A stretch of 42,883 nt of DNA from Escherichia phage LLS. The stretch lies in sequence record PQ299149; one strand, given 5' to 3'. The translations under genes were made by a program, and so were the position numbers. Under the pieces are notes generated by a model that ran no database searches, was not told the DNA's origin, and saw only the letters and a list, made by a program, of their open reading frames with translations. Below are positions 8,815-9,572 of this stretch, in pieces; the stretch's first letter is position 1; each line of letters opens with the position of its first letter.

Positions 8815-9246
8815 ATGTTTCTGAAAAAAGAGAAGTTCACCTGGCAAAAAGAGTCCCTGACCATTTTCGAGCTGTCGGCGCTTCAGCGTATTGAGTTCCT
8901 TACGTTTATGGCCGCAGAGGAAAAGACCGTCAGCGCTGAGAGCGACGGCATCAGCGATCAGGAAATGACGGCCAGGCTGATTGGATCAAATATTCGCTGC
9001 GGTGCGCGGGTGATCGCAATGTCTTTGTGGCATAACGATCCCGCTGGCACGGATGTGGAAACGCTTTATCAGCAGGTGCTTAGCGGCTGGCCGCCGGAGG
9101 CGATCGGTAAAGCAGAAATGGAAATAAAGCTGCTCTCCGGCATGCTCGTTCCGGTTGAGGATGACAATCCTGCCGATCCGGATGCCTCCGCGGAGGCCGA
9201 AAGCGCAGAACCCGTTACGGTGGAAAAGCCCTTGCCAGCGAGCTGA
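8815..9246 (+). CDS. G: Tail assembly chaperone G
   Basis: 143 aa; MFLKKE...[23 protein letters not shown] match lambda G. Confidence 0.9.
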   Translation: MFLKKEKFTWQKESLTIFELSALQRIEFLTFMAAEEKTVSAESDGISDQEMTARLIGSNIRCGARVIAMSLWHNDPAGTDVETLYQQVLSGWPPEAIGKAEMEIKLLSGMLVPVEDDNPADPDASAEAESAEPVTVEKPLPAS

Positions 9247-9572
9247 CGTTTGTCCTGAATCTGGCGCGCGAGTTCGGGCGACCCGACTGGCGCGCCATGC
9301 TGGCTGGAATGACTTCCAGTGAGCTGGGCGACTGGCACCAGTTCTATCGGGAGCATTATTTTCAGGACGCGCAGCTCGATGCACATTTCTCAGAGCTGCT
9401 TTATTCCATCTCCACTCTTTTCTTCCGCGACCCGGAACTTACCCCCGCACATTTCAGCCTGCTTTCTCCTTCCGGAGTCGCCATCAGCGATGATGAGCCG
9501 GATGATGATGATGCGCTGATGACCGCAGCTGAGGGGATAACAGGAGGTATCCGATATGGCCCAGCAGATTAG
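8815..9572 (+). CDS. G-T: Tail assembly chaperone G-T fusion via programmed -1 frameshift
   Basis: -1 frame is open from 9165 and encodes [27 protein letters not shown]... (lambda T-like) with no own start upstream of 9297; only slippery candidate is GGAAAAG at 9222-9228. Confidence 0.6.

Follow-up and report, generated by a model that had tools for sequence, protein, structure and literature searches.

The frameshift that links genes G and T of phage lambda occurs at the heptamer G_GGA_AAG, as reportedly described by Levin, Hendrix and Casjens in 1993 and by Xu, Hendrix and Duda in 2004, 2013, and 2014; the 2004 study is said to deal with the conserved tail-gene frameshift. The ratio of G-T to G in lambda is approximately 1:30 (PMC5009743). 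Phages N15 (genes 14/15) and phi80 (G/G-T) carry the heptamer GGAAAAG, identical in sequence and in register to that of the locus studied here, with AAG five codons before the stop of G. Among the records inspected, the heptamer is marked only in N15 NC_001901.1 (misc_feature 10027-10033) and phi80 FN582354.1 (misc_feature 10194-10200), in both as a “slippery sequence for -1 translational frameshift”, and G-T is given as a joined CDS only in FN582354.1. The G/T slip site of the locus is in that sense already known, being typical of the family and annotated in these two records.

The window, which denotes the whole 42,883-nucleotide stretch of Escherichia phage LLS that was analyzed (record PQ299149), has a structural module that shares 93-96% identity with the modules of Escherichia phages Flotzy, Eeyore, mEp043/mEp213, and phi80. 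Its G gene shares 94-96% nucleotide identity with the G genes of Flotzy, Eeyore, and phi80, and over G-T the identity to phi80 is 94%. Of 5426 complete E. coli genomes, 37 contain closely similar prophage G-T regions, with 90-97% identity over 301 nt; Nissle 1917 is one of them. The genes follow the order V, G, T, and tape measure, with T in the -1 frame and lacking a start codon, which is the classic V-G-T-H arrangement (Table 1). The Pfam scores of both G and T exceed the gathering scores, marking the products as homologues of lambda gpG and gpT, and the G-T of the window can be aligned with the lambda, N15, and phi80 fusions. For lambda, the identity of the fusion is ~49% and the gene order is shared. 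The G, T, and tape-measure genes are all intact. The major tail protein bears a Big_2 Ig-like domain at its C-terminus (residues ~161-242), as does lambda gpV, and this is ordinary for the group. An ORF pair between tail and tape-measure genes, homology to gpG and gpT, a start-less -1 frame, and a slip sequence of conserved position together make this a locus of the lambda G/G-T type.

Table 1. Features of the G/T region and its neighbors in the window.
Feature	Coordinates	Strand	Basis
V, major tail protein / lambda-type tail tube protein, Phage_TTP_12	8061-8804	+	Pfam
Gene G, tail assembly chaperone, zero-frame product 143 aa	8815..9246	+	ORF list; Pfam PF06894 Phage_TAC_2, E=1.3e-27
G/T overlap, 82 nt, -1 frame already open within G	9165..9246	+	Frame arithmetic, ORF bounds
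Slip heptamer G_GAA_AAG (predicted), P-site codon GAA, A-site codon AAG	9222..9228	+	Register, conservation, N15/phi80 annotation
T segment after slip, -1 frame, 114 aa + stop	9228..9572	+	Translation; Pfam PF06223 Phage_tail_T, E=3.6e-13
First ATG of T frame, T start in automatic annotation, probably not the real start	9297..9299	+	Frame scan
Tape-measure gene, 1045 aa, TMP_2 + Tape_meas_lam_C	9556-12693		Pfam

Gene G ends with a TGA at 9244-9246. The -1 frame follows a TGA at 9162-9164 and runs to a stop at 9570-9572. A sequence-only reading of this DNA had claimed that the T frame is open from 9165 with no start codon until 9297, which the ORF bounds and a start scan confirm, and that ribosomes enter T from G by a -1 shift as in lambda, which gene order, Pfam matches, and the comparative data support. 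The predicted G-T fusion consists of 252 aa, comprising G residues 1-138 and T, with the junction ...VTVEK-ALASEL... expected after the -1 slip. Downstream of the junction, N15 and phi80 have the same ALASEL(K/T)... sequence. The overlap differs in length among the three phages, with 82 nt in the window, 85 nt in phi80, and 37 nt in N15.

The heptamer is read within G as GTG GAA AAG, placing AAG five codons ahead of the G stop. N15 and phi80 have GCG as the codon before GAA, and the sites show only point differences. A scan of the overlap (9165-9246) gave no canonical X_XXY_YYZ heptamer, and the sole in-frame Z_ZZN tetramer is A_AAG at 9225-9228, inside the heptamer. No second in-frame tetramer offers an alternative slip site, and the earlier designation of GGAAAAG (zero-frame G GAA AAG) as the only plausible one is borne out, since this is the sole in-frame slippery motif of the overlap. 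In terms of canonical tandem slippage, YYY is AAA as it should be, but XXX is GGA, on which the tRNA-Glu anticodon would form a G·U pair at the middle position. G_GAA_AAG would work like a tandem-slip heptamer, yet it is not a canonical one. It also contains what single-tRNA slippage calls for, an in-frame A_AAG read by a single E. coli-type tRNA-Lys.

Lambda shares the -1 direction and the position of the heptamer relative to the G stop and the GRPDW motif. The third heptamer position is A in the window and G in lambda, so that the P-site codon is GAA (tRNA-Glu) rather than the GGA (tRNA-Gly) of lambda, and the fusion junction reads E-K rather than G-K. Upon a -1 slip, the P-site tRNA would re-pair with a middle G·U in the window, whereas re-pairing is fully complementary in lambda.

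The number of GGAAAAG copies across the window is unremarkable (9, with 7.7 expected by chance), and the significance of the heptamer rests on its conservation. A second copy on the + strand at 8919-8925 lies inside G in the zero-frame register GAG GAA AAG (codons 35-37), where a -1 slip would stop after four codons (DRQR*). As an extra in-frame upstream GGAAAAG within G is found in only 2 of 45 dereplicated homologues, this copy is probably a chance occurrence. Were the heptamer highly slippery by itself, this copy would waste an equal fraction of G synthesis.

Related loci were drawn from phage records, one genome per bacterial species, and IMG/VR, and the 140 loci obtained were reduced to 90 unique segments and then to 45 representatives below 92% identity. 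The register of the heptamer is identical across all of them. Its start lies 54 nt upstream of the GRPDW codons, without indels, in all 72 unique loci that have the GRPDW motif. Among the 45 dereplicated loci the heptamer is GGAAAAG in 40, GGGAAAG in 3, and GGGAAAA and AGAAAAG in 1 each. The majority base reaches frequencies of 0.98, 1.0, 0.91, 1.0, 1.0, 1.0, and 0.98 over the seven columns, and mostly 0.3-0.8 in the 30 nt upstream. As judged from these loci, with statistics that take no account of their shared ancestry, the comparison shows the heptamer to be under selection at the nucleotide level at an exactly conserved position. The sequence-only reading, which had proposed comparing slip sites in homologous phages, was right to call the slip sequence non-canonical in that it lacks the X_XXY_YYZ form, but the comparison it asked for reveals no oddity of this window, because GGAAAAG at its fixed spacing is the majority type.

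A pattern scan of IMG/VR for RGRAAAR at fixed spacing from GAYTGGCG....ATGCT, in which matches were not ranked by similarity to the window, points the same way. The 120 contigs among the matches listed contain GGAAAAG in 68, GGGAAAG in 48, AGAAAAG in 2, and AGGAAAG in 1; after dereplication of the matches listed (n=29) the counts are 24, 3, 2, and none, respectively. Loci with GGAAAAG come from assemblies labeled Enterobacter, Citrobacter, Kluyvera, Kosakonia, Phytobacter, Atlantibacter, Buttiauxella, Leclercia, Serratia, Klebsiella, Sodalis, and Providencia. Across the sampled loci, GGAAAAG rather than the textbook GGGAAAG of lambda is the prevalent predicted slip site of the lambda G/T family.

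One set of loci (L028-L040, L050, and L060-L062) consists of short contigs from assemblies labeled Neobacillus, Oceanobacillus, Kitasatospora, Shewanella, Leeuwenhoekiella, Paenibacillus, Enterococcus, Pseudoxanthomonas, and others. Their G-T region is of lambda type, with scores identical to the query, the lambda heptamer where checked, and coverage of ~1x where given. These sequences are almost certainly lambda DNA contamination or spike-in and not real prophages.

The overlap itself varies between 16 and 85 nt in the homologues, and the heptamer always lies inside it as the sole element common to all overlaps. The shortest overlaps are 16 nt (L071), 22 nt (L070), 25 nt (the L123 group), and 31 nt (L068). 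The G stop falls 15, 3, or 0 nt past the heptamer, and the -1 frame opens as little as 6 nt before it. With overlaps this small and a G stop right after the heptamer, the shift must happen at the heptamer. In three Providencia loci (L071, L068, and L070) the G stop follows immediately (GAA AAG TAG or GGA AAA TAG), and in several Pluralibacter-like groups it comes one codon later (AAG CCC TAG); the loci with a shifted stop include the L123-L147 group, L018, L021, and L044. A stop codon directly after the slip site could pause ribosomes and affect slippage. Past the heptamer, conservation is lowest in columns +11, +17, +26, +38, and +47, which are all third positions of the -1 frame. This variability, from the heptamer on, indicates that the T frame is under protein-level selection even within the overlap.

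Codon usage at the site bears on which tRNAs slip. It is possible, though doubtful, that at the same site tRNA-Lys slips alone on A_AAG, whether it then occupies the A site or waits in the P site for the next codon, with no part played in slippage by tRNA-Glu re-pairing or the flanking GG. In E. coli, no tetramer is more shift-prone than A_AAG (PMC4066793), natural AGAAAAG variants exist, and the stop directly after AAG in 3 of the 45 loci could favor P-site slippage during slow termination. The Lys codon of the site is AAG in 44 of 45 loci, with a background of 0.36 in G genes. A pure A_AAG model predicts neither of two further constraints. The first is that the Glu codon is GAA in 41 of 41 loci and never GAG, although GAA has a background of 0.62. 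The second is that the codon before GAA ends in G in 44 of 45 loci, where 0.38 would be expected from G genes. The codons in question are GCG, CTG, CCG, GTG, ACG, TTG, ATG, and GCA, of which those ending in G encode six amino acids (Ala, Leu, Pro, Val, Thr, and Met). Nominal binomial probabilities for the codon bias range from 1e-9 to 1e-18; they are overstated owing to shared ancestry among loci, but the direction is still clear. The natural alternatives GGGAAAG and GGGAAAA also both permit P-site re-pairing.

Since the G at position 0 is kept despite the varied amino acids, the pattern favors re-pairing of P-site tRNA-Glu on GGA with a middle G·U, the mismatch that the sequence-only reading had already implied. 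This G is the first base of the -1-frame P-site codon GGA, and selection there matches what tandem slippage predicts. From the conservation of positions 0-2, selection seems to extend beyond the tetramer A_AAG, and natural variation supports the view that near-cognate P-site re-pairing with a middle G·U is itself under selection. The AGAAAAG variants, which make up 1 of the 45 dereplicated loci in addition to those of the IMG/VR scan, imply that the first G of the heptamer is preferred and not obligatory. They read GCA GAA AAG (L154 and two dereplicated representatives among L158-L277), so that re-pairing of P-site tRNA-Glu would have two mismatches, which makes them natural test cases for the sufficiency of the A_AAG tetramer.

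Related slip sites and published energetics are compatible with imperfect P-site re-pairing. Replacing A·U by G·U in the -1 frame carries a penalty of only a few kJ/mol, and this modest cost is partly offset by the favorable A-site change from G·S to A·S (PMC6787027). The natural -1 sites A_CGA_AAG of B. subtilis cdd and G_CGA_AAG of IS1222 resemble that of the window in the shift of tRNA-Lys from AAG to AAA, in imperfect P-site re-pairing, and in a low level of shifting, while their genes, P-site codon, and tRNA are different (PMC5009743). In E. coli dnaX (A_AAA_AAG) the A-site event is the same and is driven by how weakly the single E. coli tRNA-Lys pairs with AAG. There a perfect heptamer is combined with an SD-like element and a stem-loop for ~50% efficiency, whereas the heptamer of the window is imperfect and no stimulator was found with it. 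The PRFect paper treats motif classes other than XXXYYY that occur in annotated tail-chaperone frameshift overlaps, and also considers how the tRNA that reads GAA re-pairs on GGA with the help of G·U (PMC10885494). No open-access paper was found that names GGAAAAG or G_GAA_AAG in phages. The nearest is that of Peng et al. 2019, who, working with a reconstituted E. coli system, took G_GAA_AAG as their “less slippery” control, obtained mainly the zero-frame product, and note the same second-position mismatch (PMC6924986).

Frameshift sites of the dnaX/IS3 type have a stem-loop or pseudoknot 5-9 nt downstream and/or an SD-like element ~10-14 nt upstream, and the locus does not present this arrangement. 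The 30 nt upstream of the heptamer are variable and without SD in the 45 loci, so no conserved upstream SD-like stimulator is found there. No conserved stimulatory RNA structure near the heptamer was found among the homologous loci, where the RNAalifold consensus amounts to -1.68 kcal/mol with no supported helix. Lambda is like the window in that no conserved stimulatory structure was detected, and Levin et al. in 1993 are said to have described its G/T site as lacking a recognizable one. At the cdd and IS1222 sites, shifting is stimulated by an upstream SD or a downstream structure, whereas no stimulator is evident in the window.

Two predicted stems lie downstream. The proximal one, 9233-9238/9261-9266 (T12-G17 with C40-G45 in alignment A2), begins 4-5 nt past the heptamer and is 84.9% paired over 43 sequences. 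It was rejected as a conserved stimulator, as its covariation is not above that of shuffled controls and it is missing in GGAAAAG loci of Sodalis, Klebsiella, Providencia, and Phytobacter. The other is a hairpin at 9262-9297 (+), UGGCGCGC.AGU.CGGG...CCCGACU.GCGCGCCA, the 3' end of which is the A of ATG 9297. It dominates the fold of the 70 nt past the heptamer (about -33 kcal/mol, z=-2.8), and a counterpart is predicted in both lambda and N15. This hairpin is 83.6% paired with weak covariation (matched by 7-10 of 500 shuffles) and is disrupted in lineages that use AGG as Arg codon. Starting 33 nt past the heptamer, it is too distant for a classical stimulator, and because it coincides with conserved T-frame codons it may be a by-product of coding. 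Neither stem (9233-9266 or 9262-9297) correlates with heptamer type.

The efficiency of frameshifting in the window is presumed to be a few percent or less. Without a stimulator, A_AAG shifts at ~0.15% in vivo, barely over background (PMC4066793). As A_AAG is weak without a stimulator and no conserved stimulator is found, the efficiency may be well below the lambda ratio. A tentative and rather unlikely reading is that enterobacterial lambda-like phages rely on an unrecognized enhancer, or that their G-T:G ratio is far under the 1:30 of lambda. Candidates for such an enhancer may include a nascent-peptide or codon-context effect, the mnm5s2U34 of tRNA-Glu, and the alternative stems 9233-9266 and 9262-9297. 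The mnm5s2U34 modification is at the wobble position and leaves the middle-position G·U to U35.

That T is initiated independently at ATG 9297, with no frameshift, is very improbable. This ATG is the first canonical start in the frame, and a separate T ORF beginning there is annotated in Flotzy, mEp213, phi80 JX871397, and the PGAP annotation of E. coli Nissle 1917 (NZ_CP022686.1), so that T is drawn as a short stand-alone ORF in automatic and some manual annotation alike. PGAP itself labels the stand-alone T a partial pseudogene, that is, incomplete. An explicit scan of the T frame upstream of 9297 finds no ATG, GTG, or TTG and only three CTG codons, none with an SD-like sequence. There is no Shine-Dalgarno sequence of the GGAGG/AGGA type in the 20 nt before the ATG (GGCGACCCGACTGGCGCGCC), which itself lies within the 3' arm of the stable predicted hairpin 9262-9297 and would be occluded by it. 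The ~23 T-frame codons ahead of the ATG are highly conserved with the third-position pattern of variation. Lambda, for its part, reportedly makes gpGT and no separate gpT according to Levin et al. in 1993, which also counts against an independent T.

It is extremely improbable that transcription slips on the A run and so changes the frame in the RNA itself, or that GGAAAAG arose from GGGAAAG through a sequencing error or through mutation in a prophage undergoing decay. The heptamer does include a run of four A and is one base different from that of lambda. Appreciable RNA polymerase slippage takes place on runs of 7-9 residues, and four A are far shorter. Dozens of phage isolates, prophages, and metagenomic contigs, independent of one another and from many enterobacterial genera, carry the heptamer, and the intact G, T, and tape-measure genes speak against decay. 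The same heptamer in dozens of independently sequenced genomes rules out a sequencing error of GGGAAAG and effectively excludes the doubt, raised by the sequence-only reading, that resequencing would show GGGAAAG.

The reading preferred here, with a probability of about 0.88, is an ordinary programmed -1 frameshift at 9222-9228 that would yield a 252-aa G-T fusion beside the 143-aa G. A small share of the ribosomes on gene G would step back one nucleotide at G_GAA_AAG and read the T frame on to 9569, leaving G as the abundant product. Tandem slippage is the most likely event. The A-site tRNA-Lys (anticodon mnm5s2UUU) would move from AAG to AAA, a favorable and better-matched pairing, and the P-site tRNA-Glu from GAA to GGA, where G:C at position 1 and A:U at position 3 would be retained and a middle G·U accepted. 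The heptamer appears to act without a conserved RNA stimulator. By analogy with lambda, G and G-T would be tail-assembly chaperones acting on the tape-measure protein encoded just downstream. We infer the production of the fusion, its ratio to G, and tandem as opposed to single-tRNA slippage from the arrangement and conservation of the locus.

The G/T slip site of the window leaves knowledge of the mechanism unchanged, and its practical value lies in annotation. T is started at ATG 9297, and so left truncated or “partial”, by most automatic pipelines (as for Flotzy, mEp213, and, through PGAP, E. coli Nissle 1917); in the window G-T should instead be annotated as a ribosomal-slippage CDS, 8815..9228 joined to 9228..9572, of 252 aa. 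What residual interest there is comes from a heptamer that is weakly slippery in vitro and is nonetheless the prevalent natural choice, without an evident stimulator. An unrecognized enhancer or a very low G-T:G ratio would, if true, refine the rules of bacterial -1 frameshifting or the stoichiometry of the chaperones.
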